A DNA stretch of 58,285 nt, from assembly GCA_011364985.1 (NCBI GenBank), contig RDOC01000008.1:1-58285 (forward strand), read 5' to 3'. The stretch is from Candidatus Thorarchaeota archaeon. GTDB lineage: Archaea > Asgardarchaeota > Thorarchaeia > Thorarchaeales > Thorarchaeaceae. Positions within the stretch are counted from its first letter, which is position 1. Each line of letters begins with the position of its first letter. The notes below the pieces were generated by a model. That model had not been told where the DNA came from. It made no database searches and saw nothing but the letters and a program-made list of their open reading frames with translations. Positions 5,692-56,051 of the stretch are shown here, piece by piece. The translations under genes were made by a program, and so were the position numbers.

Positions 5692-6516
5692 TTAGCACTC
5701 AGGAATGGTATACTCACCATTGTCCGTGCAAGCTACTAAGCCTTCGGAAACAAGTTGACCAAGAGCTTCTCGCACTTCGTTAGGATTGCTGCATTCAATG
5801 TCCAACTGAGATACAAGTTCATTCAGACTTAGAGTGTCTGTAAACGTCAATACACGAACAATGGCGCCTCGAAGCTGCCTGCTCGACCTCTCGAATCGTG
5901 GCTGGCTAGATGTAGGAGCAATTCTAGTTGTCCTAGCTGTCTGCACTGTTGCTCCCAGGTCCATCAAGGCATTGTGCCAATCACAGGAGCGGCCCTTGGG
6001 CAGCAGATGTTCAGCAACATCCTGCAACTCTGTTTCAGACATCTCTTCAGTTGCATACCCATTGGCAATGAGAACACGACGAATATTGGTGTCAATTGTA
6101 ACAAGATCCTGATTGAAAGCAAAGATCAGAATCGAACGAGAAGTATACGGGCCAAGTCCTTTTAGCTTTCTAAGTTCCTCCACATTTTGTGGAAACTCGC
6201 CCAACTCAACTAGTTGTTGTGCAGCTTCTCGTAGCCATAGTGCCCGTCTATTGTATCCAAGTCCACTCCAAACTTGGAGAAGACTCCTCGTGTCAGCTTC
6301 AGCCAAATCTTTTAGCGTAGGGAACGCGTTCATGAATTCGTGGTATTTTGGTATTACCCGACTCACCTGAGTCTGCTGTAGCATCACTTCCGATATCAAA
6401 ACATTGTAGGGACTGTTGTTTCTTCTCCATGGCAAATCTCTTGAGTTTGTCTTCCACCAAGTCAACACTTTGTTTTGAAATTTGCATATTGAAGTAGAAC
6501 TGACCCCGGAAGCCAA
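5692..6516 (-). CDS. A/G-specific adenine glycosylase, MutY-like HhH-GPD, without Fe-S motif
   Basis: RDLPWR, ISEVMLQQTQV, WSGLGYNRRA, LKGLGPYT (HhH), IDTNIRRV. Confidence 0.85.
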   Translation of the reverse strand: MASGVSSTSICKFQNKVLTWWKTNSRDLPWRRNNSPYNVLISEVMLQQTQVSRVIPKYHEFMNAFPTLKDLAEADTRSLLQVWSGLGYNRRALWLREAAQQLVELGEFPQNVEELRKLKGLGPYTSRSILIFAFNQDLVTIDTNIRRVLIANGYATEEMSETELQDVAEHLLPKGRSCDWHNALMDLGATVQTARTTRIAPTSSQPRFERSSRQLRGAIVRVLTFTDTLSLNELVSQLDIECSNPNEVREALGQLVSEGLVACTDNGEYTIPEC

Positions 6517-6737
6517 TAGATATCACTCACAATGCAGTTGTTTGGCATTATTTTTCGGCCGTAAGCATTGTCTTTTCGATTGGCAAATATATGACTTGAG
6601 TTGTGGTCCGTGGAAGGTAGTATCGTTCAAATACTTTAATCAGATTCCCACATGTGTTCATTTAGTGATATAGGCAAAATTCCTCTGACTCCTTCAAATG
6701 GATATACCAATTCCAAATAGAGTGTGGAAGTGTTGTC

Positions 6738-8045
6738 GTGAAACAGAATTCATCCCAAAATGTTGAGGATATTGTCGAAAGTACAAGTCCAATACCCTTC
6801 ACTGCACGGCTTATTGCCTACTACAGGGCTCAAGAAACAAATAGCGAATCGCCTCTGATTATCGATCCCCTCGCAGAATTGCTTGTTGGTGACTTATCTT
6901 CTTATGTTTCCAAACATAGACATACTGCAGGTTCTCGTGACTATGCAATAGTTCGCTCCTATCATATTGAGAAGGTAATTCTGTCTAATTGGTGCAAAAA
7001 TCATGTGATGTCTCAAATTGTACTCTTGGGAGCAGGCTTGGACACCAGGGCATATCGTTTTCAGCCCCTATGTGTGAATTCGCATACTGTCTTTGAAGTT
7101 GACCTCTCCGTTGTCAATCAATACAAAGAGCGTATTCTTCTTGACAAACAACCGCTCTGCTCTCTTATCCGTGTTTCCACCGATCTCTCAAATCCTGAAT
7201 GGCCCGACCATATGCTGGCGAGTGGCTATTCGAAAGATATTCCCACAATTTGGATTTTAGAGGGACTAGTCTATTACATTGAGCAGGATAGAGTCATCAG
7301 TCTTCTTAGCACAGCACATCAAATGAGTGCTGAAGGGAGTGAAATCTTCCTAGATGTCGCAACTCACGGATTGGCCAAGGCAAAATACGGAGCCTTCATG
7401 AAGCATTTCAAATGGGGCCTAGCTTTAGAAGAAGCCCCTGCCTTCTTCCGCAGCTTGGGATGGCATGTTGATTGCTCCTTTGCCGATGATTATGATCAGG
7501 GTAGGAATGTTGGCCAAAGAGCGCTGATATTTGTCCATGGACACAGAGGGTCAATTTTGCATGACGAAGAAGTCGTATCGGAATCGAGGATTGAAGCAGA
7601 TTTGACACCTCAGGAGTTCGTAAGATCCTTTTCACGTAATCACTTGTCTACAATTGCAAAAGTGAGCAATACATACGCGGCAGATACTAGCCGTGGCTAT
7701 GAGGCCTTTCTGGATTTTCTAAAGGAAATCAAACCAGCTATCATGAAAATCGTGGATGATCTTTCAAACCCAGCTCTGGTTCTACGGGTGGCACCAAGAC
7801 TACAGAGAGTTCCTCAAGTCTTGAATTCGAATGTCGAACGCAAGTCCTCTGAAGAGGAGAAATCCTTTGTATCTGGGGTTCTCTACGAGTTGCTTGCTCT
7901 TCTCTATTGTGCCATTCATGGTTTGCGAGTCTGGGAGTTGCAAGAGACCCCACTCTACAAAGAGATTGAGAAAAGTCGAGTACTGGGACTCCACGGTATT
8001 GAACCATTAACAAAATTGCTATTGAAGGAACTAAACAAGCCATAG
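6738..8045 (+). CDS. Class I SAM methyltransferase (LCM/TIGR00027-like) with C-terminal extension
   Basis: QIVLLGAGLDTRAYR, FEVD, WILEGLVYY. Confidence 0.8.
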   Translation: MKQNSSQNVEDIVESTSPIPFTARLIAYYRAQETNSESPLIIDPLAELLVGDLSSYVSKHRHTAGSRDYAIVRSYHIEKVILSNWCKNHVMSQIVLLGAGLDTRAYRFQPLCVNSHTVFEVDLSVVNQYKERILLDKQPLCSLIRVSTDLSNPEWPDHMLASGYSKDIPTIWILEGLVYYIEQDRVISLLSTAHQMSAEGSEIFLDVATHGLAKAKYGAFMKHFKWGLALEEAPAFFRSLGWHVDCSFADDYDQGRNVGQRALIFVHGHRGSILHDEEVVSESRIEADLTPQEFVRSFSRNHLSTIAKVSNTYAADTSRGYEAFLDFLKEIKPAIMKIVDDLSNPALVLRVAPRLQRVPQVLNSNVERKSSEEEKSFVSGVLYELLALLYCAIHGLRVWELQETPLYKEIEKSRVLGLHGIEPLTKLLLKELNKP

Positions 8046-8047
8046 CG

Positions 8048-8941
8048 TTGTCGATAGGACATTGCGCCAAACTGACAGCTCTATATGCGGTGATGCGTTA
8101 TGAAGATTGGGTATTAATTGAGATGGATGAGATGACGCTTGAACCCAGAACGTGGGGGTCATGTTGGGATCACTTTGGCGCCCGCCTAGTTGATTTGGTT
8201 GAACCATCAGTGGGGTCTCTAGTTCTTGATATTGGGACAGGTGGTGGTGCCTCACTATATCCTGCAGCAAAGCGCGTTGGTCCAAAAGGGCATGTCACTG
8301 GAATTGAAACGTGTGAAAGCTGCTTCAACCGCACATCCGGGGAAATCGAACGCTGCAGGATACACAATGCAGAGATCAAGTTCATGGATGCCTGTGAGAT
8401 GTCCTTCGAGGACGAATCTTTTGATTTTGCTATTTCTGGATTTATTGGATGGGATAACTATTTCGACTTTGAAGAGGACAAGCATATTGCCGAAGATGCA
8501 ATAATGTCGGAAGTGTTTCGTGTTCTCAAGAAAGGCGGGATAGTTGGATTCAGTGGATGGGCCAAGGCTGATGCCTCTGTCATTATGAGAAAGCTGCTCC
8601 TTACTTATCTCCCATCTGACTCCTTTCATATATCCAATGTCAAGGCTTGGTCTCACACGGAAACAAAACGCGGATGGGAAAAAATACTGTCAAAGGCGGG
8701 CTTTGTCAATATCAAAACTTGGGTCGAGGAATATGACATGGTATACTCATCAAAGGATGAATGGTGGCAAGAAGTTGTAGATCTTGACTGGCAGGAGGTA
8801 ATGGAATACCTTGAACACAATGCGATTGTTTCTGTGGCAGAGCTGAAGAAACAGGCATTTTTCCTTCTTAATGATTACGAGAAGCCCGATGGAGTACACC
8901 AAGCAAGAAACGCAGTCTTGGCAATCGGAACCAAGCCATAA
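8048..8941 (+). CDS. Class I SAM-dependent methyltransferase (UbiE-like)
   Basis: VLDIGTGGG, FEDESFDF, FRVLKKGG; true start may lie downstream. Confidence 0.8.
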   Translation: MSIGHCAKLTALYAVMRYEDWVLIEMDEMTLEPRTWGSCWDHFGARLVDLVEPSVGSLVLDIGTGGGASLYPAAKRVGPKGHVTGIETCESCFNRTSGEIERCRIHNAEIKFMDACEMSFEDESFDFAISGFIGWDNYFDFEEDKHIAEDAIMSEVFRVLKKGGIVGFSGWAKADASVIMRKLLLTYLPSDSFHISNVKAWSHTETKRGWEKILSKAGFVNIKTWVEEYDMVYSSKDEWWQEVVDLDWQEVMEYLEHNAIVSVAELKKQAFFLLNDYEKPDGVHQARNAVLAIGTKP

Positions 8942-9015
8942 CAAGCATTCTGTAGGCTACAGGTTATTGCTAAATTGAATTCTAACCAAAGTCAACTTGG
9001 TATTGCTTAAAGCTG

Positions 9016-10269
9016 CTAGTAGAACGGATCTACCTTGGCATCTAGTTTTGGAAAGAGCGCTCTGACCAGGGGTCTCATAACAAATCTACACTGAACATCA
9101 GGCTCGTGACTCGACAACTCGTCAAATGTTTCATAACCCATCAACAATCTAGTCAGCGATGGTGTTGGTGCTCGCAAATCGAAAGATTCAATCTTCTTAT
9201 CAGGTATCTCTCGCAAAGCCTTGAACTTGCCCCTTCCGAACATAATGCCATATCCCTCCTTGTAGTTTGTAAACGTTAATTCTCCGGTGAAGCCTCTCCA
9301 TTCCGTTCTCAGCAGTCTCTCTGAAAGAATTGAGCCCATGTTGTCAAAGAATCGGGTCAATGATGGAATTTTCACATACCATGCGTATCTCGGCGCGAGA
9401 GAGTTTCTTGTGATAGCATACAAGAACTCCTCCACTTGGGTTTGAGAAGGAGGAATGACTCTGAATGGAAGGCCATTCCATTGTTTCGATTTACTATTCA
9501 CATAGTGAAGGATTGGAACTAGAAGCGTATGGTTCTCCAAGTATAGCTCCCCTACATCAATTCTTGATTCCCAGCGATTGATGAAGAAGCAACCGACAGT
9601 CTTCCTGCGTTTCTTTGCCAAGTAGAAACTCATTGCCTCATGAGCTGGATCGGTAACATGCATTGAGTGATATTCATAATCCTCAACGCGAAGTGTCTGA
9701 AGCCATGTGCTTTTTGGAAGGCGTTTCTCTCGGAATTCCAAGAACTCCCTAAATGTTTCAATATCAACCTCTTTAATTGACACGCGTTCTTCTTCATTTT
9801 CGCTGAGCTTCGGTATTAATGCTGGCGCAACAAATATGCCCCCTCCAAGCTGGGCAGCGAATTCATAACCGAATCTCTTGTAGAATTGTGGAATTCCAGC
9901 AATCACCATAATTGTTGGACTTATTTCTTTGACACGTTTTTCATACTCATCATTCAGTTTCTTGATGAGTCCTCGGCCTCGATAATTGTCCAGAGTGCCT
10001 ACAACTTCCATTTGAACCGAAGGAAATTCAATTCCATCTAGTGTCCAAGATCCCTTCAGGAGAATTAAATGTGCTGCAATCTCTCCGGAGGTTTTATCTT
10101 CCACTAGAAAGACATCTTTCCATTCAAAACGTGGGTTCTTCTCATACATACCCCTGACAAGGTCTATAACCTCCTCTCCATGCACCCTGCGTATATGCTC
10201 TATGATTGCAGGAAGGTCTTTGACCTTGCCATTGCGCAAGATAAGATTCTTCTCCAATTCTTTGGGCAT
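9016..10269 (-). CDS. GNAT N-acetyltransferase (Eis-like)
   Basis: VGTLDNYRGRGL acetyl-CoA motif, FYKRFGYE, Eis-like length. Confidence 0.75.
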   Translation of the reverse strand: MPKELEKNLILRNGKVKDLPAIIEHIRRVHGEEVIDLVRGMYEKNPRFEWKDVFLVEDKTSGEIAAHLILLKGSWTLDGIEFPSVQMEVVGTLDNYRGRGLIKKLNDEYEKRVKEISPTIMVIAGIPQFYKRFGYEFAAQLGGGIFVAPALIPKLSENEEERVSIKEVDIETFREFLEFREKRLPKSTWLQTLRVEDYEYHSMHVTDPAHEAMSFYLAKKRRKTVGCFFINRWESRIDVGELYLENHTLLVPILHYVNSKSKQWNGLPFRVIPPSQTQVEEFLYAITRNSLAPRYAWYVKIPSLTRFFDNMGSILSERLLRTEWRGFTGELTFTNYKEGYGIMFGRGKFKALREIPDKKIESFDLRAPTPSLTRLLMGYETFDELSSHEPDVQCRFVMRPLVRALFPKLDAKVDPFY

Positions 10270-10483
10270 AATAGCAGTAACGATCCTGTCCCGTTTATAG
10301 TTGATGAGAAGATCGGATTGTCAGAAAAACCCATTGAAAATCTCTTGATTCTGCTTCCATATGTTCGGCCACCGTTCTACAGAGGCCTCAATACATATCT
10401 TTGGTCATTGGAGTATCTGTAAACACTCAAACTAGATAAGAGAAGAATTCGAAGTCAAATGTAGGGAATCCCTACAAAATCAA

Positions 10484-11074
10484 GTGGCGATGAATCTGGC
10501 GAAACGGGAACAGCTAATAGCAGTAAATCACTCACGAATTGTGTTTCCGGATCAGTGTCCTGTCTGTGGAAAACCTGCGACAGACCATGGTGCAATACCT
10601 GCAGTTCCCAGAACCGACCGAATGCAGGCTCAGAAGATGTATGGAGGATCCTTTCCGAGTTCGAGAGTTGTGACTTCCACTCGCTCTATGCCTATGACGC
10701 GGACCGTTGCGTCAATAACTGTTCCAACATGTGAATTGCATGCTATCTCGCTGGAGGAACTTGGAAGAACTAGAGGCCCACTCTCCTTAATCAATGGTCT
10801 TTTCATAATGGCCACGCTTGTTCTCAGCCCCTTTACATTGCTTGCACTTATCGCAGGTATTCCTGTCAATCCAAATTTGCTGGTGCTAATAGTCTTGACA
10901 GGATTTCTGGCTGTTGTCACATACTACTTCTCGGGTCCAACATCGCTTGAGCGAGCCATTTCGATCTTGGACATTGGTTCTGAGATGATGATCTTACGGA
11001 TTTCCAATGATGATTATGCAGCAGAGCTACTAAGACTGAATCCAATGACCGCAAACCGTCTAGCATCACAATGA
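10484..11074 (+). CDS. Hypothetical membrane protein with CxxC/CxxH zinc ribbon
   Basis: FPDQCPVCG...PTCELH, two TM segments. Confidence 0.65.
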   Translation: MAMNLAKREQLIAVNHSRIVFPDQCPVCGKPATDHGAIPAVPRTDRMQAQKMYGGSFPSSRVVTSTRSMPMTRTVASITVPTCELHAISLEELGRTRGPLSLINGLFIMATLVLSPFTLLALIAGIPVNPNLLVLIVLTGFLAVVTYYFSGPTSLERAISILDIGSEMMILRISNDDYAAELLRLNPMTANRLASQ

Positions 11075-11163
11075 AGAGACCATGCCATGCAACTCCTTCA
11101 CTCAATATCAGGAATAGTTATTTCATCTGACTTAGTCTACTTCCTGCCAGAGAGGTCCTTAAC

Positions 11164-11685
11164 GTGCCCAACTCAAAGCCTGACGCGAATAAGGTTCCAT
11201 TGGAAAAAAAGAAGGAACAAGCTCGAAAACGCACTAGGGCTATTCGTGAGAATGCCATCTTCTCGCGTAAGAAGCGTCAGAGTATCTTGACTCCTGGAGT
11301 CAAAATCATGGGTGGTTCTTTATTCGACAATGATGTAGATACACCTAAAGAACGTCAAGAGCTGGAAGAAGCTGTTGCATCTTACGTTCTCAGAAGAGGA
11401 GGGTTTGAAATCACAGAGGAGTCCTCAACGGACACACTCTCCAAGAGACGCGACAGCAAAGACGTGATGAACGTAATGATCGCTAGAATCGCAGGATTCG
11501 ACGAGCGATGGGGACTTGACAGGAAGTTTCTCAGGGAATCCATACATGCGCATCGTTTCGAAGATAAGAGCATAGTCGAGTACACCTTGGAAAGCTATGG
11601 TGGTTACGTGAGTCGAACTTACTACGTTGTCGATGGTCTCATTTTTCGAGCCTTTGCCCAGCACAATTTTCGCAAGGATCAGTGA
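11164..11685 (+). CDS. Hypothetical protein
   Basis: 173-aa ORF with basic N-terminus. Confidence 0.5.
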   Translation: MPNSKPDANKVPLEKKKEQARKRTRAIRENAIFSRKKRQSILTPGVKIMGGSLFDNDVDTPKERQELEEAVASYVLRRGGFEITEESSTDTLSKRRDSKDVMNVMIARIAGFDERWGLDRKFLRESIHAHRFEDKSIVEYTLESYGGYVSRTYYVVDGLIFRAFAQHNFRKDQ

Positions 11686-11821
11686 GTTCAGGGCTCTTTC
11701 TTGGTATTCCTTTTGACAGGGAACTTCTTCCTTTCATCTGCATGATTATACAGAAGCTTGAAACAGCTCACTTATCAGGAGCTGAAAACAGGACGAGTTC
11801 GGAACAAAAGAAAGGCAGTCG

Positions 11822-12472
11822 TTGGTCAGGAGCATGAAGAACTACCTTGCCGTATTGCTGCAAGTGGTGGGTTTTGTCACGTTTATTTTGGCCTCTTCCT
11901 TTGGATATACATTGGGAAACATCACATGGTTTCGCGAATCGAGTTTTGTATTTTCTACTTACTTGCAGTATGATTCGATGATGATGAATACCTTCCTAGT
12001 GATGATTGGTTCTCTGTTCCTTTCTGTTAGTCTTCTCTTGCAATGTAACGGTCTTATGGAGTGGGGAGTTTTTGGAGGAGTGGTGTTTTTCGCATCGTTT
12101 CTGGTTGGTGTTTCGCGAATCGCTTTATTTCCTCCAAATTGGGGTGTTCCAGGAAGTGGATTTCTACTGGAGATGTTGATTCCTTTTGAAGCACTATTCC
12201 TTACTGCAACTGGGTTGACCCTATTCGGACTACTCTGCTTTGGGTTTCATCACAGAACCGTTTCTCGAATCAGTCTTTCTCGTTCGCTTACACTATTCCT
12301 TATGATTTCAGTTCTATTCGTTGTATTAATGGCTATTCGAGGCGCTATTCTAATATCAGGTGCTCACGGTGCCATCCCCTATCCTGTCCTCAGTGAATGC
12401 TCCATTCTCCTATTTCTGCCATATTCTATTGGACTGATAATGGCTTCTCTTGGTCTCTATGAAGCGAAATGA
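11822..12472 (+). CDS. Hypothetical multi-pass membrane protein
   Basis: About six hydrophobic segments. Confidence 0.6.
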   Translation: MVRSMKNYLAVLLQVVGFVTFILASSFGYTLGNITWFRESSFVFSTYLQYDSMMMNTFLVMIGSLFLSVSLLLQCNGLMEWGVFGGVVFFASFLVGVSRIALFPPNWGVPGSGFLLEMLIPFEALFLTATGLTLFGLLCFGFHHRTVSRISLSRSLTLFLMISVLFVVLMAIRGAILISGAHGAIPYPVLSECSILLFLPYSIGLIMASLGLYEAK

Positions 12473-12622
12473 CTGTATTTTGGCACAGTTCATCATTGGC
12501 AGCTGATCTTAGGCTACTATTATGATTGCTGATTGATGTAATAAACGATATTTCATTAGCGGAAACTATTCACCAAAATATTTACTAATTTTGAGAGAAA
12601 AGTTTAATAAAATCCGGGCGAC

Positions 12623-14026
12623 ATGCAGCATAGAGGGAATATGCCTGCTGAAAGAATAGATGACAACCAGACTGCCGACTCCTTGCTTATTTACAATGAG
12701 GGCCTCGCACATCTCTTGGGCGCATTTGCAAACGAGACACGTCTTCGGATTCTCTCAACGCTCCTTAGAAGAAGGCAGGAATTCGCTGATTTGCAGGGTT
12801 GTGTTGGAATAAGCAAGACTGCTCTGGCAAAGCATCTCAATGTACTTGTTTCTGCCGGGGCCATTCAGCGAGTGGGACGAGGAACATATCAAATAACGAA
12901 CGATGCGGCAGATTCCCTCAGAAGCATATGTCAAACCTACCTATGGTCTAGGGAACGAAGGCTCTCGGATGCGGTACGAAGAGTGAAACTCTATTCGCTG
13001 GCCAGTAAGGAGGAGAGACAAGAAATGAAGAAGTATGAGGTAAAGAAAAAAGCAGAGATTCTGCCGACGTGGATATCCTATGTGGGTGCGACAACGGGGG
13101 TCCTTAACTCACTTGGCATTGACGTGGACCGTGCTGATGTTGCGGGTTACACCGGTTATGCTTTCGTTGTGAATGTAAGCAAAGAAGGTACATGCCCCTC
13201 GGGGCCAACTGCTCATGATGCCTTCTTTGAGTTTCCGAGGGGCTTTGAAGCCCTTGGATGGAAAGTGGATTTCAGTCACAAACAAGTTGAAGGGTGCGGC
13301 TTTGAAGCTGGGAAAGTTCTTACTGACGGGCAAAAGGAACTGGCCCTCGACCATTACAAGGAAGTGTCCAAAAACCTGCGTCTTACGGAGCGTCCTGTTG
13401 TGATTTGGGGCGCACCAATCCCGGAGTTTTCAATTGTCAATGGTGTAGACGATGGAAAGTATATCGTCAGTTCGTTTAGAAGTCATGTGGGCCAACCTGA
13501 TGATCCATTGAATTATGATCAATTGCAGGCGCCGGGAGGAGTGATGCTAATCTCCTTCAAAGAACAAGTGAAGAAACCTGATGTGGCAAAGGCGGATTTT
13601 GAGGCACTCGATCGAGCCATTGACATTGCCAAGGGCAAATACGTCGAGGACTTTGGATACGTAATGGGCCCTAATGCATTCGAGGTCTGGGCAAAGAATC
13701 TCACGACTAAAGATGCCTTGTATGGAGGCAATGCCTATGTCGGTGTATGTACTCAGGAAGCATTTGCTTGGGCGGAGATGTTTCTCTCAAGAATGGCAAA
13801 ACGATACAAAGGCAAGGCTCAATCCAAGTTCTTGGATGCTGCCGCCAAATCATTTGACAAGGCGCAGAAAATCATGGATGACTTTACAAAGCTGTTTCCA
13901 TTCTCTTGGGAGCGCGAGTTTCAGAATGGTGACCGAGAATCGGGAGCAAAGATGCTGTTGGAAACAAGGCATTATTTCGAACAGGCCATATCTAATATGG
14001 AGAAAGCTCATACCGAATGGGACTAG
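12623..14026 (+). CDS. ArsR-type wHTH regulator fused to a BtrH-like domain
   Basis: ANETRLRIL...SKTALAKHLNVLVSAGAI; then DVAGYTGYAF, TCPSGP, PVVIWG. Confidence 0.7.
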   Translation: MQHRGNMPAERIDDNQTADSLLIYNEGLAHLLGAFANETRLRILSTLLRRRQEFADLQGCVGISKTALAKHLNVLVSAGAIQRVGRGTYQITNDAADSLRSICQTYLWSRERRLSDAVRRVKLYSLASKEERQEMKKYEVKKKAEILPTWISYVGATTGVLNSLGIDVDRADVAGYTGYAFVVNVSKEGTCPSGPTAHDAFFEFPRGFEALGWKVDFSHKQVEGCGFEAGKVLTDGQKELALDHYKEVSKNLRLTERPVVIWGAPIPEFSIVNGVDDGKYIVSSFRSHVGQPDDPLNYDQLQAPGGVMLISFKEQVKKPDVAKADFEALDRAIDIAKGKYVEDFGYVMGPNAFEVWAKNLTTKDALYGGNAYVGVCTQEAFAWAEMFLSRMAKRYKGKAQSKFLDAAAKSFDKAQKIMDDFTKLFPFSWEREFQNGDRESGAKMLLETRHYFEQAISNMEKAHTEWD

Positions 14027-46063: not shown

Positions 46064-46358
46064 AGAAACTGGATTCTCGCAGGTTAGTCGAAAATACATC
46101 TCATGAAGTGTGTCAAAGTTTGCAAAGCCAATAAGCGCCATTTCATCTTGTGCTATGCTGAAGTATACTCAGCTAGAACCCCTCCTAGGTCTGAAGCGAC
46201 TGAAACAGGTAATAGAAACAGGTTTCTCAGTACCAGCAAGGTGGCTAGAATGCAAAGGGGGGTTACTCTTCTTTTTCATGTTATTCAATTATCCAAAAAA
46301 TATAATAACAACTTGAATATCCTTCTACGATGGTCTTCCGTAGGTGGAATGGGTGTAT

Positions 46359-46739
46359 ATGATTTCACATGTTAGGTTAATCGGAATCATTGTTGTGTTT
46401 TCATTGATATTTGCTGTCTTGCCCTTGACAGATGGGCTATTCATCTTTCACGATAACGACTCTTCGCAGATTCGCTACTCGGAGCCTGCCGCCATTGAAT
46501 GGTCTGATGACTTTGAAGATGGCAATTATGATGAATGGACAGTCAACAGAGGAGGGTATTCAGCCACAGATGGTGTAATGAGAGGGACCTATTCAAGTTT
46601 CAACTGGGCACACCATTCAAGTACAACAGCTTTGGGCACTTGGAGCTTTGACTTTTACTTTAGAGGTACCAACGGCATGTCAGTGTGGTTCATCTGTAAT
46701 GAGCTAGTTGGGGCTGACTATAATCGACCGGGAGAGGGT
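46359..46739 (+). pseudogene. 5' part of a secreted-protein gene interrupted by the mobile element
   Basis: Signal peptide, WSDDFEDGNYDEW, ends ...RPGEG; continues in frame at 54861 (YYIEI...). Confidence 0.85.
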
Positions 46740-46759
46740 ATGCTACAGTAATAGAATAA

Positions 46760-46778
46760 CTAGATAATCCTAGACATT
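46760..46778 (+). repeat. Left subterminal inverted repeat
   Basis: CTAGATAATCCTAGACATT, 17/19 match to the reverse complement of 54827-54845. Confidence 0.8.
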
Positions 46779-46805
46779 GATTAAGTGACTATTTAAAGAA
46801 TTGTT

Positions 46806-47426
46806 ATGTACTCGGTATCACAAGCTGCACTCAGACTAGGAGTATGCGTCAGAACCATACATCGATGGGACAAGACAGGCAAACTCCGTTGTTTCAGGAC
46901 GGTGGGTGGACATCGTCGTATCCCACTCGCAGAGGTCAATCGACTCCTAGGACTCATGCATCGTGACCTCATACAACAACCATCCAAGAAACGTTGTGCG
47001 ATCTATGCTAGGGTTTCAAGTCATCGTCAGAAGACTGCTGGTGACCTTGATCGACAACTCAAGCTCCTCACAAAGGAGTGTCGGAAACGTTTCAAAACCA
47101 GTCCTCTAGTTTTCTCCGACATCGGTTCAGGACTCAACATGCGACGAAGGGGACTCTCCAGACTATTCAGCCTTGCAAAGAGCGGTTCCATTCACACACT
47201 CATCATCACTCATAGGGATAGACTCACTCGTTTCGGCCTGGAACTACTAGAACGTATTCTCAATGATTATGGTGTCAGGTTGGAGGTCCTCTATCAACCC
47301 GAACAGCAATCTCCTCAAGAAGAACTTGTCACTGACCTCATGTCATTGATAGCATCCTTCTCAGGTAGAGTCTATGAACTACGAGCTCATCAGTCCAAAC
47401 GGATTAACCTTCCTCAAAGAACTTGA
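46806..47426 (+). CDS. tnpA: IS607-family transposase (serine recombinase with N-terminal MerR-like HTH)
   Basis: AALRLGVCVRTIHRWDKTGK..RTVGGHRR HTH; YARVSS (catalytic S71); DIGSG; DRLTRFG; ELVTDLMSLIASFSGRVY. Confidence 0.95.
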   Translation: MYSVSQAALRLGVCVRTIHRWDKTGKLRCFRTVGGHRRIPLAEVNRLLGLMHRDLIQQPSKKRCAIYARVSSHRQKTAGDLDRQLKLLTKECRKRFKTSPLVFSDIGSGLNMRRRGLSRLFSLAKSGSIHTLIITHRDRLTRFGLELLERILNDYGVRLEVLYQPEQQSPQEELVTDLMSLIASFSGRVYELRAHQSKRINLPQRT

Positions 47427-50400
47427 CCCCCTTCTTCTCTAGGACTTCCTTCACTTCTTCTATTATCTCTCTCAAGTCATTCTCTCCAAGACCATAGGGT
47501 GAAAGAGATGCAGTCACTTCTGAGATCACTTGTTCAGAATAGATTGCTCCTGCATATTCAGTATCATGTCTTAATTTGAGTATATTCTGCAGGACAATCT
47601 CTTCTGTATCCTCACCAGTGTTAGATTCCAAGCTTACAATCACCCCATCATATTGACGACTATATTCAATCTTCTTGACTGAGAATGAAACACCATCATA
47701 CATCTCTGCAAGCACTCGTTCCCTCTCACGCATCATTTCCAGATGCTTCTCATGTGCCTCTCGAATCTTAGATTCTATTCTTTCAGGATCTCTCTCCTCA
47801 GCTAACAATGCCTCGTATAGTTGAGAGTATTCTTGAACTCTTGAGAAACGAAAACCCGCATCCACAAGCGGTACTACATCAAGTTCTACAGGATGCCAGA
47901 CTTCCTTCTTAGGATCATATAGCTCCTTACAGTCAGCAAGTAATCCCATTGCAAAGACGTCGAATGTGACATTCTCTAATTCCCTTAAGATATGATCCCT
48001 CGCAAGGTCTTTCAATTCTAAACGATAACTATCACCTTCTGGGTGTATCACAATTGTAATGCTGTTTTTTGTTATTGATCTAAGATATTCACTACAGGTC
48101 TTGGGATAATAGAACTCATCGGGATAGAATCTGCTTCGATGAACAAGAGGTCTTAAGAAGAAGAGTTCGTCGCCATAGTCTATATCTTGACTTCTATCCC
48201 ACATCAGAGCTTGTCCATTTAGAAGATATCCACTACTGAATCGGATATGATATTGCAGGAACCGAGTGACCTCGTCGGTCCTTGAGAACTCCAAGTATTC
48301 ATCCACCTTTTCTCCGAACAGATTCACCACGTAGGTCTCATTTTCACGGTTCACACTCAGTAGCACATTCACAGGAACTTGTTCCTTCTTGACCCCTGCG
48401 ATTCTCAAAAGCACTTCATCTACTGAATCGGGGATAGATGGGACTGTATTGGGAGGAGCAAGCAGGGGAGTTTCACTAAGTATAAGATATGGGACCACAT
48501 CATTGCGACCGCTGGACTCGCCATGCCTTTCCAGACGGAGGGACATCCATGTAATATCCTGATCCTCATCCATCAGAGGGATCCAGAGTACCTGCTCTCC
48601 CAGAATCTCTGTGGATATCAGAGGTGTTCTATTCGTTGACGAGAGTGCATCCTGAGCAAACTTCCTAATTCTCTGAGTCTTGATCTCACATTGATGATAC
48701 TTTGGACTTATGAGTGTATCACGCAATCCTTCGATAAGAGCTGTGAGGAATCCTTCCTCTTGGGGTATCAACAGCATTGCATTGAAAGTATATTCTGACT
48801 CTTCCCAGATGATTGCACCTGTCTGTCTTTGCTCCACCTCATGATCAGGAGTAGAATCCATTGGTACTGGGAAGGTCTCAACATGTGTTCTTAGACTGGA
48901 AATGATTGCTTGAAAACTATACACCCATCTTATCTTATCATCGTGATTTTTCATTCCTAGTTGGTAGAACATCCATTCAGCAATTGAGTTCCAGAGACGT
49001 TCAGCGACTGAGAGACCTCGACCTCCAAGGACTACCAAGACCGCTAGGAATAGGTTATTCCCATATAGATGAAGGACATCTGCATTTCTCTTGATTATCT
49101 CATCCATCACATCTCTGTTCTCCGTGTTCAACAGATCAACAAGTTGCATCCGAACTGGGGCAAGGTGCTTCCAGACTTTGGCAGCATTCTCCTCCTTGAG
49201 GATGAGTTCCTTGATCTTCTTCAATGATGCAAGAAAGAACTCTGGAGTCTTTACAGACGGATGTTCTCGTAAGATGGCAAACTGTGTGGCACAGAATCCC
49301 TCAATCTTCTTGCACTGTAGTCTTATTCCTTCTGGAACGAACTTTTGGTCTTTCAAGTATCTCGTGGCATATTGTATTCTTCGCAGTTCAGATTCCCTTG
49401 TCTCTAACGTGTCAATCAAGCTTCCAAGGAGTTCATTGACTACTGGTGGTGAGTTAGAGATATACTGTTCATCCTCATCGATGAAGAGTTGAGTGGGAGT
49501 TCTCTCATAGTCCCACCCTCTGGTGATCTCATCAGCATTGGTATATTGCGGTTCACCTCTCTTAGGGATTGGTGGAGGTCTCAAGACCTCTAGTTTCAAT
49601 CTATCACCAAGGGATGGACCATAATTCGAACCTACTTCATGAGGAACAGATTGCCATAAGACGTCTTCTTCTGCATGTTCTTCTGTGGATTCTTCATCGG
49701 TCTCTTCGTCGATTTCTTCATCAGGTTGACCTCCTCTATCTCGAAGGACACTCGGAATAAGAGAGAGGGCATTTGTCAATACTTCTGTATATGATTCCGC
49801 GGACAGTTTCCCAGTTGATGCATATATGCTTGAGAGACTCACATTCCGTCCATACATCCTCAAAGGTTCATCTGAGAATCTCTCCACTTCATCAAATGAG
49901 TACGTTCGCTTTCTCTCAGATAGACCTTTGAATTTCAACGTTAGTCCAGTTAACTGTGGAACATGAATAGGAACGTGCCATGGCTGTACTTTTACTGGAT
50001 AGTCCTGAATGATTATTCGGACATCTTCTTGTTGAGGGTATGTCCATCCAAGAGTCCAAGGACATGTTGGAACATTATAGAGTATTTCATCCAGATGAAA
50101 CCTGCGGGGTGAGTCATGACGAAGGGGTTTGATGCATTTATGCTGATAGAATCTATTCATCTTGGTGTGTGGGGTTTCACTATCTATCCAGATGATCTCA
50201 ATATCGGAAGGTGGTAGGGTCTCTAGAAGCTGGAGTTCAAGAGCACGCAAGATATTCTGCTGGTGCTTAGGTATCATCTGCTTGATCTCCACCCAACCAT
50301 CAAGAACTATGATTCGTTTTCCTTCTTTATCCCTAGGAATCAAGAAACGAAGATGTTGATCCAGTGTGTCAAGGGCATTTGTTCGATTATCGAATATCAT

Positions 50401-52491
50401 GGTGATGAATCCACTGAGGTTGATGAACTTGATATCTCGCAAAGTATTGCTCAGTTGGTCATGGATGTCTCTTGAAATCTTCTTCTCCTGGTATAACTCT
50501 CTGATGCCAAAACGCTTCTCCACAAGTTCCTGACATCTATAGTCACCAGTTAGGTCCAGCCAAATGGCATCAGTCGATTCTGTAGAACCCTCAATGCATT
50601 CTCGGATATGATGAAGTAAGTGCCAGCTGGTAGAGATTCTTGAAGCAGTCTTCCCAGATGAAGTTGAAGAATCAATGGGTATGTAAAGTGTCAGAGTTCT
50701 ATCATCACCTTCACGTTCTGCAAAGGGGTCCTCCTCAGGTAGCGTCAGGATATTTTCCATCTCGTCGAGAAGTTGAGCAGGTCCTTCAGTGGGTGCGATA
50801 AGTAGACATACACGCGGTACGTCACATCCTATGGAAAGAGGCTCAGGAGTTATGGAAACTGGTTCTTGATTGATAAGCTGTTGAAGAAGTCCTGTTGTTA
50901 GGTTCTCAAGAAGGAACTGAAATGCAGGAAATACATCAGCAGGTAGCTGTTCTGTATCCAGTACAATAATACCCTTCCAGAGAGAACTTGGAGGACTTGG
51001 GTCATGCGGAGCAACTTGTTTGTATTCATTCAACAACTCGTTGCTGTATTCGGTTAATTGAGCAAATGCGGAAGCATCTGGTCTAGAGGTGACAATGGAG
51101 TTCCACTCGTCCAAACTCAATGCACGTTTCCAGGTGTAGAATGCTGGAGTGACTGTCTTTGAGCGTTTTCTCTTGATGTTCATTCCGAAGAGGTTGAAGT
51201 TGAATCCAGTCTTCGTCTTTATCTCAAGGACCATCACAGGAGTCCACAATATCCGTTTAGCGACCATGCGTCTGATGAACACTGTCAGGTCTACCTTACC
51301 AGAGTATCTTGCCACTGGAAGTTCAGCAACGATCAAGATTGACGAAGGTTCATCAAGCATCCTGTCTCCTGAACAAACGACCTGTTTCAATGACACGGGA
51401 TGATGAAGGTCAGACATGAGTATTCTGTGCCACTGATTTCCCTCTCGACTATTCATACCTTGGACCATGTCGATAAGCTTCTCTATGTCCCGTACCACAA
51501 TGTCCTCTGAATCGATGTGGTCTAATAGATTCTGTAAAGCCTCCTTTTCCTGTTGGTCGTTTATCTTCTTCAAAGCAATCATTGCTTTTTCTCTAACAAG
51601 TTCAATGGTTGGTTCGAGGATGACCTCATTCCTGTGAGAGACCCGTTTTCTGACCTTTGAGCGCTTTCTATAGAGAGTACGGATCTCCACTACAATTTTT
51701 CTGAGGACCTTGTCAGCATCAGGGTTGAAGTTATTCCTTCCCCTTCTTCCTCCAGTGTACACCCAATCTAAGAAGGGTTTGAGATCATGGATAAGGAGGC
51801 AGATGTAACGGTGAGCTTCGTTCATTGGAACATCGTAGATGAAACATTGACGGCACAGCTCTACGCAGTGAGCACGAATCATATCCACAAAGTCCAGCCC
51901 AGAGAGAGTCGGGTGTGATAGGAATACTCGGGGAAGTTTGCGTTTCCGTTCATATCCGAACTTGTAGTATGTCTTGGTTGCATTAGGATCTTCCTTACTC
52001 TCCCCCCTCTGTGAGGGTGTCAATATTATCTTACTACCGTCTGCGTACTCTCGTACCTCGAACTTCTCAGGTTCAGGAAAAGGATACAGAGTCATAGCAA
52101 GGTCTCTGAGTCGCGCACCTGCATAGTTCAGAAGAGAGTTCAAAGTGCCCACAGAACCTTCCAACCAACTATACACACGTTTTGTTTCCCTATTACCATA
52201 ACGTCGAGTGCTTGACCAAGTGCTCTTGAGAAATCGACATCTCATATTCGGTTCAGCATTCTGGATAGGAGTAAGGTCTGGATATCTTGGATTCTGTTCC
52301 TCAAATGCCGCTTTTGCCTTGACCCACATCCTCTCTATACTGTTGTAGTATCTCCGAGTCTTCTTATTCGTCCGGTTCCGTGCAAGACGAATCAATGCCA
52401 CTAGACCCATGTAGATTGAATTGCTAAGGACTGTATTGGGGTCTGTGGTCATCCTCTTGCGGGTTTTCATTGTTATAACAAGTGGTTCCAT
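47404..52491 (-). CDS. 1,695-aa cargo protein with a RecB-like PD-(D/E)XK nuclease domain and a degenerate P-loop region
   Basis: G351xxxH355, E390, GKVD401, E423IK425, Q478LxxY482; SSTSSGK614T and IIVLD731. Confidence 0.7.
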   Translation of the reverse strand: MEPLVITMKTRKRMTTDPNTVLSNSIYMGLVALIRLARNRTNKKTRRYYNSIERMWVKAKAAFEEQNPRYPDLTPIQNAEPNMRCRFLKSTWSSTRRYGNRETKRVYSWLEGSVGTLNSLLNYAGARLRDLAMTLYPFPEPEKFEVREYADGSKIILTPSQRGESKEDPNATKTYYKFGYERKRKLPRVFLSHPTLSGLDFVDMIRAHCVELCRQCFIYDVPMNEAHRYICLLIHDLKPFLDWVYTGGRRGRNNFNPDADKVLRKIVVEIRTLYRKRSKVRKRVSHRNEVILEPTIELVREKAMIALKKINDQQEKEALQNLLDHIDSEDIVVRDIEKLIDMVQGMNSREGNQWHRILMSDLHHPVSLKQVVCSGDRMLDEPSSILIVAELPVARYSGKVDLTVFIRRMVAKRILWTPVMVLEIKTKTGFNFNLFGMNIKRKRSKTVTPAFYTWKRALSLDEWNSIVTSRPDASAFAQLTEYSNELLNEYKQVAPHDPSPPSSLWKGIIVLDTEQLPADVFPAFQFLLENLTTGLLQQLINQEPVSITPEPLSIGCDVPRVCLLIAPTEGPAQLLDEMENILTLPEEDPFAEREGDDRTLTLYIPIDSSTSSGKTASRISTSWHLLHHIRECIEGSTESTDAIWLDLTGDYRCQELVEKRFGIRELYQEKKISRDIHDQLSNTLRDIKFINLSGFITMIFDNRTNALDTLDQHLRFLIPRDKEGKRIIVLDGWVEIKQMIPKHQQNILRALELQLLETLPPSDIEIIWIDSETPHTKMNRFYQHKCIKPLRHDSPRRFHLDEILYNVPTCPWTLGWTYPQQEDVRIIIQDYPVKVQPWHVPIHVPQLTGLTLKFKGLSERKRTYSFDEVERFSDEPLRMYGRNVSLSSIYASTGKLSAESYTEVLTNALSLIPSVLRDRGGQPDEEIDEETDEESTEEHAEEDVLWQSVPHEVGSNYGPSLGDRLKLEVLRPPPIPKRGEPQYTNADEITRGWDYERTPTQLFIDEDEQYISNSPPVVNELLGSLIDTLETRESELRRIQYATRYLKDQKFVPEGIRLQCKKIEGFCATQFAILREHPSVKTPEFFLASLKKIKELILKEENAAKVWKHLAPVRMQLVDLLNTENRDVMDEIIKRNADVLHLYGNNLFLAVLVVLGGRGLSVAERLWNSIAEWMFYQLGMKNHDDKIRWVYSFQAIISSLRTHVETFPVPMDSTPDHEVEQRQTGAIIWEESEYTFNAMLLIPQEEGFLTALIEGLRDTLISPKYHQCEIKTQRIRKFAQDALSSTNRTPLISTEILGEQVLWIPLMDEDQDITWMSLRLERHGESSGRNDVVPYLILSETPLLAPPNTVPSIPDSVDEVLLRIAGVKKEQVPVNVLLSVNRENETYVVNLFGEKVDEYLEFSRTDEVTRFLQYHIRFSSGYLLNGQALMWDRSQDIDYGDELFFLRPLVHRSRFYPDEFYYPKTCSEYLRSITKNSITIVIHPEGDSYRLELKDLARDHILRELENVTFDVFAMGLLADCKELYDPKKEVWHPVELDVVPLVDAGFRFSRVQEYSQLYEALLAEERDPERIESKIREAHEKHLEMMRERERVLAEMYDGVSFSVKKIEYSRQYDGVIVSLESNTGEDTEEIVLQNILKLRHDTEYAGAIYSEQVISEVTASLSPYGLGENDLREIIEEVKEVLEKKGVKFFEEG

Positions 52492-52662
52492 ACTAAAATA
52501 TTTATCCTATTCGTTGGCAAAACAAAACCATTTATTTTATAAATAAAGCACTATTATGCCTTTATTTTTAGTTTTAACCAATAATAGGAACAAATTTTGA
52601 TAAACTTAAATATAATTCAGGAGAATATATAGTATATCACTCGATTAGAGAGAGGTGTAAGA
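52492..52662. promoter_or_regulatory. AT-rich divergent promoter region between cargo gene and tnpB
   Basis: TTTATAAA (52536-52543), TTAAATAT (52606-52613), SD-like GAGGTG (52652-52657). Confidence 0.6.
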
Positions 52663-54828
52663 TTGATGACGAAGAAAGTCCGGCGCCATTCCCGGAAGCA
52701 GATGAAGACTAGTGATAGTGGTCAGACGCAAAAGACAATGGATGGCAAACTTAAATATGATTCATCAAAAACACACCAAACGACTGGATTGAAGTATCTC
52801 ACTGAATCATTCATCCTCTGTTCATTGAATAGGGAAGTGAATAAGAAGGGAAAGGGAAGAAAACCTGACCCTCGATATAGAAGAAGCAATCCAGAAATAG
52901 TGAAGCAACAAATCCAGACAGTGACCGGACGAAAGGTCATTGATTCCGACCTCTCTTTGATTGGGATGTATTTCGAAAAGTATGTTGAAATGGTTAACCT
53001 TGTTCTTGAAAGAGTCTACTCAGGTGAGCAACGGGTAGAGTTTCTCGGTGATGAGTTGAACTCCTATCGAGGACAGGGATATACTCTGTTGAAGAAGGAG
53101 AATTACCTTTCCTACAAGGACAACAAAGACATACAGGCTCAGTGCTTTGAGCGGATGTACAGGAATGTCCTTGAACAAGCAGCCAGGATTATCTACTCTG
53201 ACTGGATGCGAAGACAGCTCATGAAGAGTGCGATAGAGTATGTCTCTGAGAATAGACCTTCTCTGATCTCACTATTGAAGAACAAGTATATTCCTTTTAG
53301 AATGATCAAGGAAGTCAGAGCTAAGTGTGAGAGTATAAAGGACAATGGTACTGGTTACTACTACACAGTCTCTGTTCTGAAACAACTAAGGAAGAGTCTG
53401 GATGAGTATATCCTCTCTGAACGAGGAGAACCACTTGGTTTCAGAGGTTATCAAAGAAAGAGAGTAAGGAAGTATATCAAAGATAAGACTGAATCTGTTG
53501 CAGTATTGGCTTTGGTTGATGTGCTTCTTCATGAATTTGAAACTAACGGTTATCCTTTCTCAACACCTAAGATGCAGTCCTATGCACAGGACTTCTCTGC
53601 TAGTACTGAGAACAGTCCAGGACAGGGTTACTGGTATTCATTGGACAAGGAAAAGGACAATGAGGTCATATTTTTCCTCAAACTTCCCGAGCCTATCATT
53701 GGCAAGGAAGCTGAGGGGTCTCCATTCAGAACTAAAACAATCTGCTTCAGGTATCTTGATTGGATGCCTCGAGCTGCTGCAAAGGACCGAGTAAAGGCTG
53801 CTACTGCTGAGAAAGAATGTAAGTACTATCGAGCTAAGAAGCTGAGATTCAGAGCTCGAAAGTACGAGGATATGCACCAACAGCTATTGAATACCACCGA
53901 ACTACAACATGCTACGTACCAACTAACTCGACTCAAAAACAGAAAGGAGAAAGATCTCAATAGGATAAAGGAGCTTCAAGAGAGGATATCAACTCTAAGG
54001 AAAGAGCGAAGGTGTGCACCACCAAAACTTCTTCTTAGAGATAACAGAGTGACATTACAGATACCATTCCAGCCACCCACGAGAGAGATGGTGGATGAGG
54101 AACTTGGACCACGGACCTATAGAAGGAGAGCCGGAGCTGACCGTGGAGTCCGAGTACCCATCGTACTTTCCACTCGTGATGGTAACGGAGGATTTGTAGA
54201 CGAAATGGTCCCCTTTGACCATCTCATTTCAAAGAGGGACTTTCTACGAGGACAGACCCGCAAACTCACTTCTCAAGTGAGAAGGATGCAGATTAACTGG
54301 GAACGAAAACATACTAAGAAGAGCTATCCCCGTCACTTCCTTAAGAAGGACCGACACCTCTCCGCGATATGGAGGAAGGTCCGTAGACTGGACACAGAGA
54401 TTGCCCGACAAGTGGCTAGTCAGACTGTCTGGTTCTGTGAAGAGTATGGAGTTAGAACTCTGTACTTTGAGAACCTGAAGAACTACTCTACCCCAGCTGG
54501 TTGGGGTACGTTGTCTTGGAGATTGAGTTCAAATCTCTGGTCAAAGGTATTTGATACAGTAGTCTACATGCGTCAGAGTCTTGGACATAAGAGAGGAGGA
54601 GTATGGACGGTCAGTCCCGCATGGACCTCTCAGAAGTGTCATGTCTGCGGAGAAAAAGGCATACGCGTGGAGTCAAAGGGCTCTACTGACGAGAAGAAGG
54701 GAGGTGCATACTTCTACTGTGAGAGCTGTGGGTGTTCCCTCCATGCGGATGTCAATGCCGCACGAAATATTATTGAGGTTCATACATCACGACCCAGAGT
54801 CGTTGCTGGGCAGATGACCTTGACATAA
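52663..54828 (+). CDS. tnpB: Large TnpB/Cas12-like RNA-guided RuvC endonuclease (721 aa)
   Basis: RuvC-I AGAD493RG, RuvC-II YFE603NL, TSQKCHVCG...CESCG zinc ribbon, RuvC-III HAD696VNAARNI. Confidence 0.88.
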   Translation: MMTKKVRRHSRKQMKTSDSGQTQKTMDGKLKYDSSKTHQTTGLKYLTESFILCSLNREVNKKGKGRKPDPRYRRSNPEIVKQQIQTVTGRKVIDSDLSLIGMYFEKYVEMVNLVLERVYSGEQRVEFLGDELNSYRGQGYTLLKKENYLSYKDNKDIQAQCFERMYRNVLEQAARIIYSDWMRRQLMKSAIEYVSENRPSLISLLKNKYIPFRMIKEVRAKCESIKDNGTGYYYTVSVLKQLRKSLDEYILSERGEPLGFRGYQRKRVRKYIKDKTESVAVLALVDVLLHEFETNGYPFSTPKMQSYAQDFSASTENSPGQGYWYSLDKEKDNEVIFFLKLPEPIIGKEAEGSPFRTKTICFRYLDWMPRAAAKDRVKAATAEKECKYYRAKKLRFRARKYEDMHQQLLNTTELQHATYQLTRLKNRKEKDLNRIKELQERISTLRKERRCAPPKLLLRDNRVTLQIPFQPPTREMVDEELGPRTYRRRAGADRGVRVPIVLSTRDGNGGFVDEMVPFDHLISKRDFLRGQTRKLTSQVRRMQINWERKHTKKSYPRHFLKKDRHLSAIWRKVRRLDTEIARQVASQTVWFCEEYGVRTLYFENLKNYSTPAGWGTLSWRLSSNLWSKVFDTVVYMRQSLGHKRGGVWTVSPAWTSQKCHVCGEKGIRVESKGSTDEKKGGAYFYCESCGCSLHADVNAARNIIEVHTSRPRVVAGQMTLT

Positions 54829-54860
54829 TGTCTAGGTTTGTCTAGAAAACAATCAACGGT
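54749..54860 (+). ncRNA. Putative TnpB guide-scaffold (omega/reRNA) overlapping the tnpB 3' end
   Basis: Position expected for TnpB; by-eye pairings ATGTCAA/TTGACAT, ACGA/TCGT with CCCAG/CTGGG, TCTAG/CTAGA; 5' boundary uncertain. Confidence 0.4.
54827..54845 (-). repeat. Right subterminal inverted repeat
   Basis: AATGTCTAGGTTTGTCTAG (reverse complement CTAGACAAACCTAGACATT). Confidence 0.8.
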
Positions 54861-56051
54861 TACTACATTGAAATCACCCTGCCATATGGGAGTACAGAGG
54901 CTGAACTAACTCTTTCAAAATCGGTCAATGACGTTTGGACTTTACTAGGCACGTACATTTTTCCAGATAACGCGCCAGGATGGTGGCATTTCGACATTGT
55001 ACGGGATGAAAGCGGAACCATCTCTGTTTCTCTAAACGGCATACTCAGAGTGGAAGCCATAGACACCACCTATGATGTGTCTGATTACTTCTATCTTCAA
55101 GGCTTTAACACTCAAGGTATCGACAACATCATCGTAGACGCCACGAGTCCTGGGGGAGGAATCACTCGATTGACCCAGAGCTCTACTGACCTCTCTGTTG
55201 GTGACACGTATATGGATACTAATGGTCATCTCTGGGTATCTTGGACAGATTGGAGTAACTTGAATTCAATGATCTCGGATTCCAATACAATAAGCCTTCT
55301 TCCGGCTGCGATAAACATGTCGCCAGAGAATGATGGCTTTGATAATGACCAGGCCTCCTGTATTCTTCGTGACCAAAATGGTACACTATGGTTAGTGTAT
55401 AGTGTCGGAATATCCACATATTCAGAATCTGTGTACATTCGCAGCTATACCTCTGGAGTTCTTGGAGAGCGGCATCAAGTGGCCCAAATAGCTGGGACAA
55501 ACCGAGAGGCTGACTTGGTACAGCATTCTGATGGGAGCTACTCATTGTTCTTCTCCGCATCGGATAGTATTTACTCAGCCTCTAGTTGGCATGGGTTCAT
55601 CACGCATTCGGATGATCTCATATCTTGGACGACGCCCACCCAAGTAACGACAACATGGGGTCGGCTGACCAGAATGACACTCGACAACGAAGACAATCTC
55701 TATGCATTAATAGATAATAATGATCAGGGATTGAAAATCAGCAAATCTGAGGATGGCATAACTTGGAGCTCACCAATCACTTTGACTTCTGGACATTATG
55801 GGGACATCTACTATAGTGCTAGTCTAGGAAAACTATTTGTCGCATATTTCAATCCAGCAGATAACAATATCTGGATCAGAGATACGACTGATGGGATTAC
55901 TTGGTCTACACCTTGGCTCGCCGTTGATAGGACTGCCTCCTCAGCCACAGAATGTAGGATATGCGAGGATGACCAAGGCCGGTTATTGGTGACCTATATG
56001 GACAATGTTGGTGGGCATAATGATCTCTTCATTATCAGTATCTCTGTTTAG
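54861..56051 (+). pseudogene. 3' part of the interrupted secreted-protein gene (beta-rich domain + BNR/Asp-box sialidase-like propeller)
   Basis: Frame open from 54861, same frame as the 55050-56051 ORF; Asp-box-like SDDLISW, SEDGITW, TTDGITW. Confidence 0.8.

Follow-up and report, generated by a model that had tools for sequence, protein, structure and literature searches.

A probable IS607-family transposon with a giant third gene interrupts a thorarchaeal LamG-like protein gene at a GGT

We have analyzed a window of 58,285 nucleotides (nt) from Candidatus Thorarchaeota archaeon (contig RDOC01000008.1 of assembly GCA_011364985.1), i.e., the whole stretch of DNA considered here, in which an 8,121-bp element with three genes at positions 46740-54860 lies inside a gene for a secreted LamG-like protein. 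This element is very likely one intact IS607-family transposon that was inserted by its serine recombinase TnpA as a single unit via a circular intermediate. Between tnpA and a tnpB-like gene it carries a third, giant gene on the opposite strand whose product is best read as containing a Cas1-like domain. As far as the accessible literature goes, an IS607 chassis with such a fixed Cas1-like/TnpB pair is new, while the mechanism of its insertion is known.

Results

A single protein domain is split at a GGT shared by both junctions

The element separates two fragments of one host gene. Host fragments, junctions and element ends are arranged as follows:

46344..46739, forward strand: N-terminal fragment of the host gene, 132 codons with a signal anchor and the first half of a LamG/concanavalin-like domain
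46737..46739, forward strand: left-junction GGT, which makes GGGT with the preceding G
46740..46805, forward strand: left end (LE), non-coding, with the subterminal repeat CTAGATAATCCTAGACATT at 46760-46778
54688..54860, forward strand: right end (RE), with the hairpin CCCAG...CTGGG at 54793-54810, tandem GTCTAG units at 54828-54846 and the terminal sequence ACAATCAACGGT at 54849-54860
54858..54860, forward strand: right-junction GGT, with 15 distinct flanks behind ...AACGGT among related copies
54861..56051, forward strand: C-terminal fragment of the host gene, 396 codons with the second LamG-like half and a BNR/propeller-like region

The left junction reads CCG GGA GAG GGT/ATGCTACAG and the right junction CAATCAAC GGT/TAC TAC ATT GAA (slashes mark joins), where CAATCAAC and GGT together span 54850-54860. 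An earlier interpretation made from the DNA letters by themselves, below called the sequence-only reading, had placed a GGT core at both junctions, and GGT is indeed found at 46737-46739 and 54858-54860 and recurs in related copies. It had also claimed that joining 46739 to 54861 restores the host gene in frame up to 56051. The left GGT is codon 132 of a frame starting at 46344, and the stretch 54861-56051 is divisible by three in length and in phase with it; the scripted join of 46344-46739 with 54861-56051 yields 528 residues (...DYNRPGEG/YYIEITLPYG...) with a sole, terminal stop and thus confirms this claim. In the interrupted state, the N-terminal frame reads three codons into the element and stops at 46751, and the right half in the joined frame is open only from 54846 (TAG at 54843), i.e., it opens at the element edge.

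GGT is the longest repeat at the element flanks, with no target duplication of more than 3 nt. Its presence on either side means that the crossover can be placed only to within 3 nt; the possible limits range from 46737-54857 up to 46740-54860, and every choice restores the identical sequence. The chance of a 3-nt match at both ends is 1/64 and that of an in-frame join 1/3; stronger evidence comes from the comparative data, i.e., from homologues of the host protein and from the recurrence of GGT.

Related genomes encode many secreted LamG-like proteins, mostly of 230-290 amino acids (aa) plus one of 1007 aa. Ten homologues align to the joined protein as single segments over approximately residues 50-230, across the join at 132/133, with 28-41% identity, and a multiple alignment of all ten has zero gaps at the join. 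The three best read NPYNG/YYLHF, NPGEG/YRLLI and NGEKG/YQLNI, ungapped against RPGEG/YYIEI of the joined protein, and counting both GGTs as host sequence would add one residue that is present in no homologue. The insertion therefore splits one protein domain, and removal at GGT restores a conserved Gly-Tyr pair; that the two halves might stem from different genes, a caveat of the sequence-only reading, is not what we find. Since the host halves directly abut LE and RE, everything between them is insert. Its GC content does not mark it (0.438 compared with 0.457 in the rest of the window). The flanks of three related copies (L062, L063 and L069) split no recognizable genes and gave no second case of a restored gene.

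Ends and core recur in related copies at different sites

The element ends are asymmetric and have no terminal inverted repeat. Their sole likeness is a 19-nt imperfect subterminal repeat built of CTAGA-like units, in which 46760-46778 is complementary at 17/19 positions to 54827-54845 and which is set back from the ends by 20 nt and 15 nt. Related copies keep the motif (C)CTAGACATT in their LEs. On the right side, related copies are conserved through ...ACAATSAACGGT and then diverge. An alignment of the 3' regions of 12 elements, which had not been selected for GGT, shows conservation up to ...ACAAT(C/G)AACGG(T) followed by a complete stop, and homology to the closest relatives, L068, L087 and L090 (88% nucleotide identity), ends exactly at 54860. 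Altogether, ...AACGGT is followed by 15 distinct right flanks, with 11 contigs added when metagenome contigs were scanned for the RE motif. Two of the close copies (L087 and L090) are 5'-truncated remnants, and the LE is thus left without a close comparator. Among 13 independent related copies, GGT directly precedes the LE in every one (13/13) and GGGT in 11/13.

Such ends and core, together with the domain order of TnpA described below, agree with the assignment to IS607 that the sequence-only reading had based on a GG core and the lack of a target-site duplication. The GG of the left GGT is probably the recombination core; from the sequence, GG with T as a family-specific extra is the most likely definition, and a core of GT is less likely. 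In five of the 12 aligned copies, tnpA is missing or broken and the core reads GAT, GAC or GGC, as would be expected if TnpA acts on the element ends.

Several related copies are smaller and keep both ends. In L063 (303-3069, 2.77 kb), tnpB is the only gene and is fused on its upstream side to the LE and 45 nt of tnpA; this copy shares 93% identity with the complete L062 copy from its genome and has the same two ends at a new site. L088 (ca. 124-3427 after re-orientation, 3.3 kb) consists of tnpA and tnpB only, and L086 (ca. 5704-6126 after re-orientation, ca. 0.4 kb) has the 5' part of tnpA fused to the 3' part of tnpB. These three form a natural size series with intact ends, i.e., ready-made mini-elements for assays. 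In genome G053, five left ends with tnpA starts (L095, L101, L102, L103 and L104) lie on five contigs with different flanks that each end in GGGT, which suggests that the element family has been active there. A TnpA-less copy (L050/L066) has a decayed RE, ACAATCAACGAC, ca. 100 nt from a sequence resembling a tRNA 3' end, GGGATTCGAACCC, on the opposite strand (approximately L066:12178-12330).

Three genes between the ends

The coding part of the element and the putative target of its guide RNA are:

46806..47426, forward strand: tnpA, a 206-aa IS607-type serine recombinase with a YARVSS motif and Ser71
47404..52491, reverse strand: giant gene, 1695 aa, between tnpA and tnpB
52492..52662, no strand: intergenic region of 171 nt between the divergent giant and tnpB-like genes, a head-to-head layout also seen in related loci
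52663..54828, forward strand: tnpB-like gene, 721 aa, with RuvC residues D493, E603 and D696 and a CxxC...CxxC zinc ribbon
54861..54880, forward strand: first 20 nt of the right flank, with TACTACATTGAAATCACCCT, the predicted guide-matching target on the restored donor joint by analogy with IS607 TnpB

TnpA is intact and matches the Pfam domains HTH_17/MerR (residues 1-48) and Resolvase (residues 65-195), i.e., a MerR-type helix-turn-helix (HTH) precedes the resolvase domain. Among solved structures, it is closest to the catalytic domain of TnpA from ISC1926, an archaeal member of the IS607 family (6dgc; E 3.5e-31), and the YARVSS motif aligns. The tnpA and giant genes are convergent, and their 3' ends overlap by 23 nt (47404-47426). 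The tnpB-like gene lies downstream of tnpA on the same strand and ends with a stop codon 32 nt before the element boundary. Its product has a Cas12f1-like TNB domain (Pfam, E 8e-13) and ca. 490 residues ahead of RuvC-I.

The order of tnpA, opposite-strand giant gene and tnpB recurs between like ends in L043 and L069 (both from genome G023), in L065 and in a decayed copy on contig C17 of the window's own genome, and L062 carries the trio with the giant gene on the same strand. The sequence-only reading had proposed that the 8.1 kb moved as one unit through TnpA, and these five copies support the unity of the element; the action of TnpA itself would follow by analogy with known IS607 systems. 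In the C17 copy (C17:128000-146000, L006), TnpB (5508-7673, reverse strand, 721 aa) and the giant protein (7850-13174, forward strand, 1774 aa) share 49% and 51% identity, respectively, with their counterparts in the window, the tnpA remnant (ca. 13167-13328, reverse strand) contains stop codons, and the RE core reads GGC.

A candidate guide-RNA end and a proposed cycle of insertion and excision

No Rfam family matched anywhere over 46600-55100. The RE contains the hairpin listed above and a second helix with compensatory changes (CG to UA and AU to GC) among 12 copies. By analogy with characterized IS607 elements, it is probably the 3' part of a guide-RNA scaffold that ends at the element boundary, from where the guide would read into TACTACATTG..., and the left GGGT is probably both target motif and target-adjacent motif (TAM) of TnpB. 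In the Clostridium botulinum IS607-type IStron, TGGG serves as integration motif and TnpB TAM and the guide-RNA scaffold ends in ...UCGG (bioRxiv 10.1101/2023.11.20.567912); the element described here resembles it in an RE that ends in ...CGG(T) and in the GGGT at its left junction.

The same IStron has a strict GG core, forms precise donor joints and passes through a circular double-stranded intermediate (bioRxiv 10.1101/2023.11.20.567912). On this model, TnpA would insert the thorarchaeal element as a circular-intermediate unit by a conservative crossover at GG(T) within the codon pair GGT-TAC of the LamG-like protein gene. This crossover would leave no target duplication, and its reversal would rebuild the host gene exactly, with the donor joint GGAGAGGGT/TACTACATTG and an excised circle carrying the junction CAATCAACGGT/ATGCTACAG. 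With the guide-RNA end encoded by the RE, we infer that TnpB would then cut the restored joint of GGGT and TACTAC..., and the element may be copied back.

The giant protein is predicted to contain a Cas1-like domain and is paired with TnpB

Pfam has no family for the giant protein or for 25 relatives, and it has no match in the PDB by profiles and no neighbor in the ESM Atlas. We therefore turn to structure models built from 25-sequence alignments (predicted local distance difference test, pLDDT, of 84.5 and 78.6). For the model of residues ca. 7-261 (pLDDT 84.5; Foldseek probability 0.98, E 0.12), the 12 best VIA-align matches are all Cas1 or casposase, with Z 13.2-9.3 compared with at most 7.1 for others and 155-199 residues aligned. 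Residues ca. 279-545 match Cas4, AddB, RecB and MGME1-type nucleases (Z 7.1-5.5) with PD-(D/E)XK nuclease residues at D401, E423-x-K425 and Q478xxxY482, and residues ca. 595-905 match RecA, Rad51, KaiC and DnaB-type ATPases (Z 11.4-8.5). The C-terminal ca. 790 residues carry no fold assignment.

Across the giant family, E80, N118 and H193-D200xxD203xxR206 are invariant or nearly so, and together these six residues follow the E...N...H...DxxExxR pattern of true Cas1 proteins in related genomes. A comparison with real Cas1 by hhalign is weak (E 0.024, probability 2%) and places E80 and N118 on the Cas1 motifs without amounting to evidence of homology. Because structural matches and motifs are consistent, a Cas1-like domain is the best reading of the modeled residues 7-261, to be taken with caution since the domain is helical and has no sequence-level match.

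The giant family is multi-copy, with relatives in Candidatus Thorarchaeota; 15 of the 24 genomes searched from the host's archaeal family contain it, and 0 of 16 others. At all of the ca. 28 giant-gene loci examined, the neighbor is a TnpB-family gene, in head-to-head orientation everywhere but in L062, and the 171-nt intergenic region of the window is presumed to be a bidirectional promoter. The giant gene is thus obligately paired with TnpB in this archaeal family and no random passenger. It lies inside the element, as the sequence-only reading had it, but the word cargo used there undersells a Cas1-like fusion with such a fixed partner. In cis, the giant gene is not needed, since copies without it exist (3.3 kb, 2.8 kb and ca. 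0.4 kb).

The L062 locus also has a separate gene (L062:7973-8944, forward strand) for a 324-aa Rad51/RadA/KaiC-like ATPase (Pfam Rad51, E 4.8e-21), which sits between a 1412-aa giant gene on the tnpB strand and tnpB; this layout suggests that the RecA-like module can be split off. In a TnpA-less sister lineage (L052:4163-11620 and, on the reverse strand, L053 4820-12253; 85.6% identical over 7.4 kb), the giant gene accompanies a 550-580-aa TnpB. One end of this unit reads ...CGACTCTATT, followed by a hypervariable segment of 28-49 nt and then GTCGGGGATCACCTCCTAAG, and ATCACCTCCTAAG is also found at the other end, so that a direct repeat with a spacer-like segment flanks the unit. A similar arrangement downstream of aCas1-linked tnpB has been described by Altae-Tran et al. 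(2023; PMC10691335).

Discussion

Comparison with known systems

The thorarchaeal element shares an HTH-first serine recombinase and a downstream tnpB on the same strand with IS607 of Helicobacter pylori, ISC1926, IS1535 and the C. botulinum IStron. Chen et al. (2018) describe the IS607 family as free of terminal inverted repeats and target-site duplications, and the element agrees with the family in these respects as well as in its asymmetric ends, subterminal short repeats and a GG core at both junctions. Differences are the size of TnpB (721 aa compared with about 400 in the IS607 family), the additional conserved T after GG that gives GGGT, and, unlike the two-gene content of IS607, a third gene of 5.1 kb, encoded on the opposite strand, that lies between tnpA and tnpB. 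With this gene of 1695 codons, the element is a variant of the IS607 family and not a canonical member.

Asgard aCas1-TnpB loci, at which aCas1 has been proposed to replace serine recombinases and to be the likely transposase (Altae-Tran et al. 2023; PMC10691335), are similar in having an Asgard host (here Thorarchaeota) and a very diverged Cas1 homologue beside TnpB, a likeness by description. For the aCas1 groups Cas1H-Asgard-1 and -2, that study cites Makarova et al. (2020). Unlike in the published account, an intact IS607 TnpA accompanies the pair in our element, and the junction is of the serine-recombinase type.

Like the Cas4-Cas1 fusions of CRISPR adaptation modules, the giant protein would combine a Cas1-like domain and a Cas4/RecB-like nuclease in one polypeptide. 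Unlike these, its order is Cas1 then Cas4, it lacks the Cas1 N-terminal beta domain, a Cas2, a CRISPR array and a Pfam match to Cas1, and it comprises more than 1,100 further residues including a RecA-like fold.

Casposons have terminal inverted repeats, target duplications of ca. 14-15 bp and a family B polymerase, and integration by the Cas1 family is staggered. The element shares with them a predicted Cas1-fold catalytic domain on a mobile element, but terminal inverted repeats and target duplications are absent from it, and no polymerase gene lies between its ends.

Weighing the explanations

Not all observations sit easily with one intact transposon moved by TnpA. The sequence-only reading had suggested looking for an uninterrupted orthologue of the host gene: the C-terminal half, compared with 5.8 billion proteins, matched nothing but the window's own fragment, a six-frame search of its own genome and 40 related genomes found no orthologue (the best match, of 44% identity, covers the C-terminal part only and lies inside a 3409-aa frame), and a degenerate DNA pattern for NRPGEGYYIEI as a probe for the empty site had no match in metagenome contigs. 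The restored gene is thus validated by homologues at the level of paralogues (28-41% identity), which do agree across the junction. The element is also single-copy at this identity in its own, 74%-complete genome, with no sign of recent activity, and it encodes an apparent Cas1-like integrase domain with conserved catalytic residues. Further, its modules have different nearest relatives: L062 has the nearest TnpA (86%) and TnpB (76%) together with a giant gene of 27% identity that points the other way, and the giant genes most similar to that of the window (L058, 53%, and L042, 50%) adjoin a different, shorter type of TnpB. The giant gene and TnpB have therefore not co-diverged, and modules have been exchanged by recombination. 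All of this counts against the explanation we favor.

The discordant phylogenies of the giant gene and TnpA/TnpB (L058, L042 and L062) would also fit a history in which a two-gene IS607 element resembling L088, a 3.3-kb copy with the same ends, inserted first and the giant gene was acquired afterwards from another aCas1-TnpB module through recombination or gene conversion. We consider this distinctly unlikely: three-gene copies of the same order and orientation are found at unrelated sites (L043, L069, L065 and C17), no secondary junction is marked inside the element, and L063 has clearly arisen by deletion from a three-gene copy, as L088 may have done too. Homing, i.e., TnpB-guided cleavage of the empty allele and homologous repair from an element-bearing sister chromosome, draws on the intact TnpB triad (D493/E603/D696), on the conserved structured RE region that ends at the boundary, and on a restored joint in which GGGT would immediately precede the flank, matching the arrangement of TAM plus target published for IS607. 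The sequence does not distinguish such a history from TnpA integration, but homing copies only a pre-existing insertion at a site and the original event still needs a transposase, which makes it very unlikely as the explanation of this insertion.

The giant protein itself could have moved the element if its Cas1-like domain were an integrase of casposon type, as has been proposed for aCas1-TnpB loci. The predicted fold and the conserved Cas1-type residues speak for this, as do the absence of tnpA from most giant-TnpB loci and the view of aCas1 as likely transposase (Altae-Tran et al. 2023). The scar, however, speaks against an integration by the Cas1 family, which gives staggered duplications: the element has asymmetric ends, no repeat beyond GGT and a host protein that aligns ungapped. 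The same ends recur at new sites in copies that lack the giant gene, cores decay where tnpA was lost, and we regard integration by the giant protein as highly improbable. We give almost no weight to a chimeric contig that was mis-joined through a repeated element and whose flanks are not neighbors in the cell. The window belongs to a metagenome-assembled genome, and contigs can be wrongly joined at repeats, but the flanks of the element are halves of one protein domain that join in frame and without gaps relative to homologues, and the assembly contains no second copy of the element at this identity.

Implications

Insertion of the whole element by TnpA remains the explanation that we favor, and the junction would then be a clean natural record of how the element entered, by a conservative GG(T) crossover without duplication that is fully reversible and ordinary for IS607. 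For this clade, the scar points to TnpA and not to the Cas1 homologue that has been proposed as the transposase of aCas1-TnpB loci, and the conserved giant Cas1 fusion is thereby left without a known job. It seems unlikely, though deserving of mention, that the giant protein is neither cargo nor transposase but a working partner of TnpB. One possible role would be to process the break made by TnpB so that the element is copied back, and a related copy has a Rad51-like gene at this place; another would be to install or renew the guide segment beside the scaffold, where the TnpA-less sister lineage has its hypervariable segment. If the giant protein were such a partner, these elements of Asgard archaea would represent a living intermediate stage, with a transposon TnpB on one side and a CRISPR system capable of adaptation on the other. 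With its exact ends, GGGT target and natural mini-copies, the element family lends itself to direct tests of excision by TnpA, of the TAM and guide of TnpB, and of the effect of the giant protein. Such tests bear on how TnpB systems may have gained Cas1-type partners on the way to CRISPR-Cas12.

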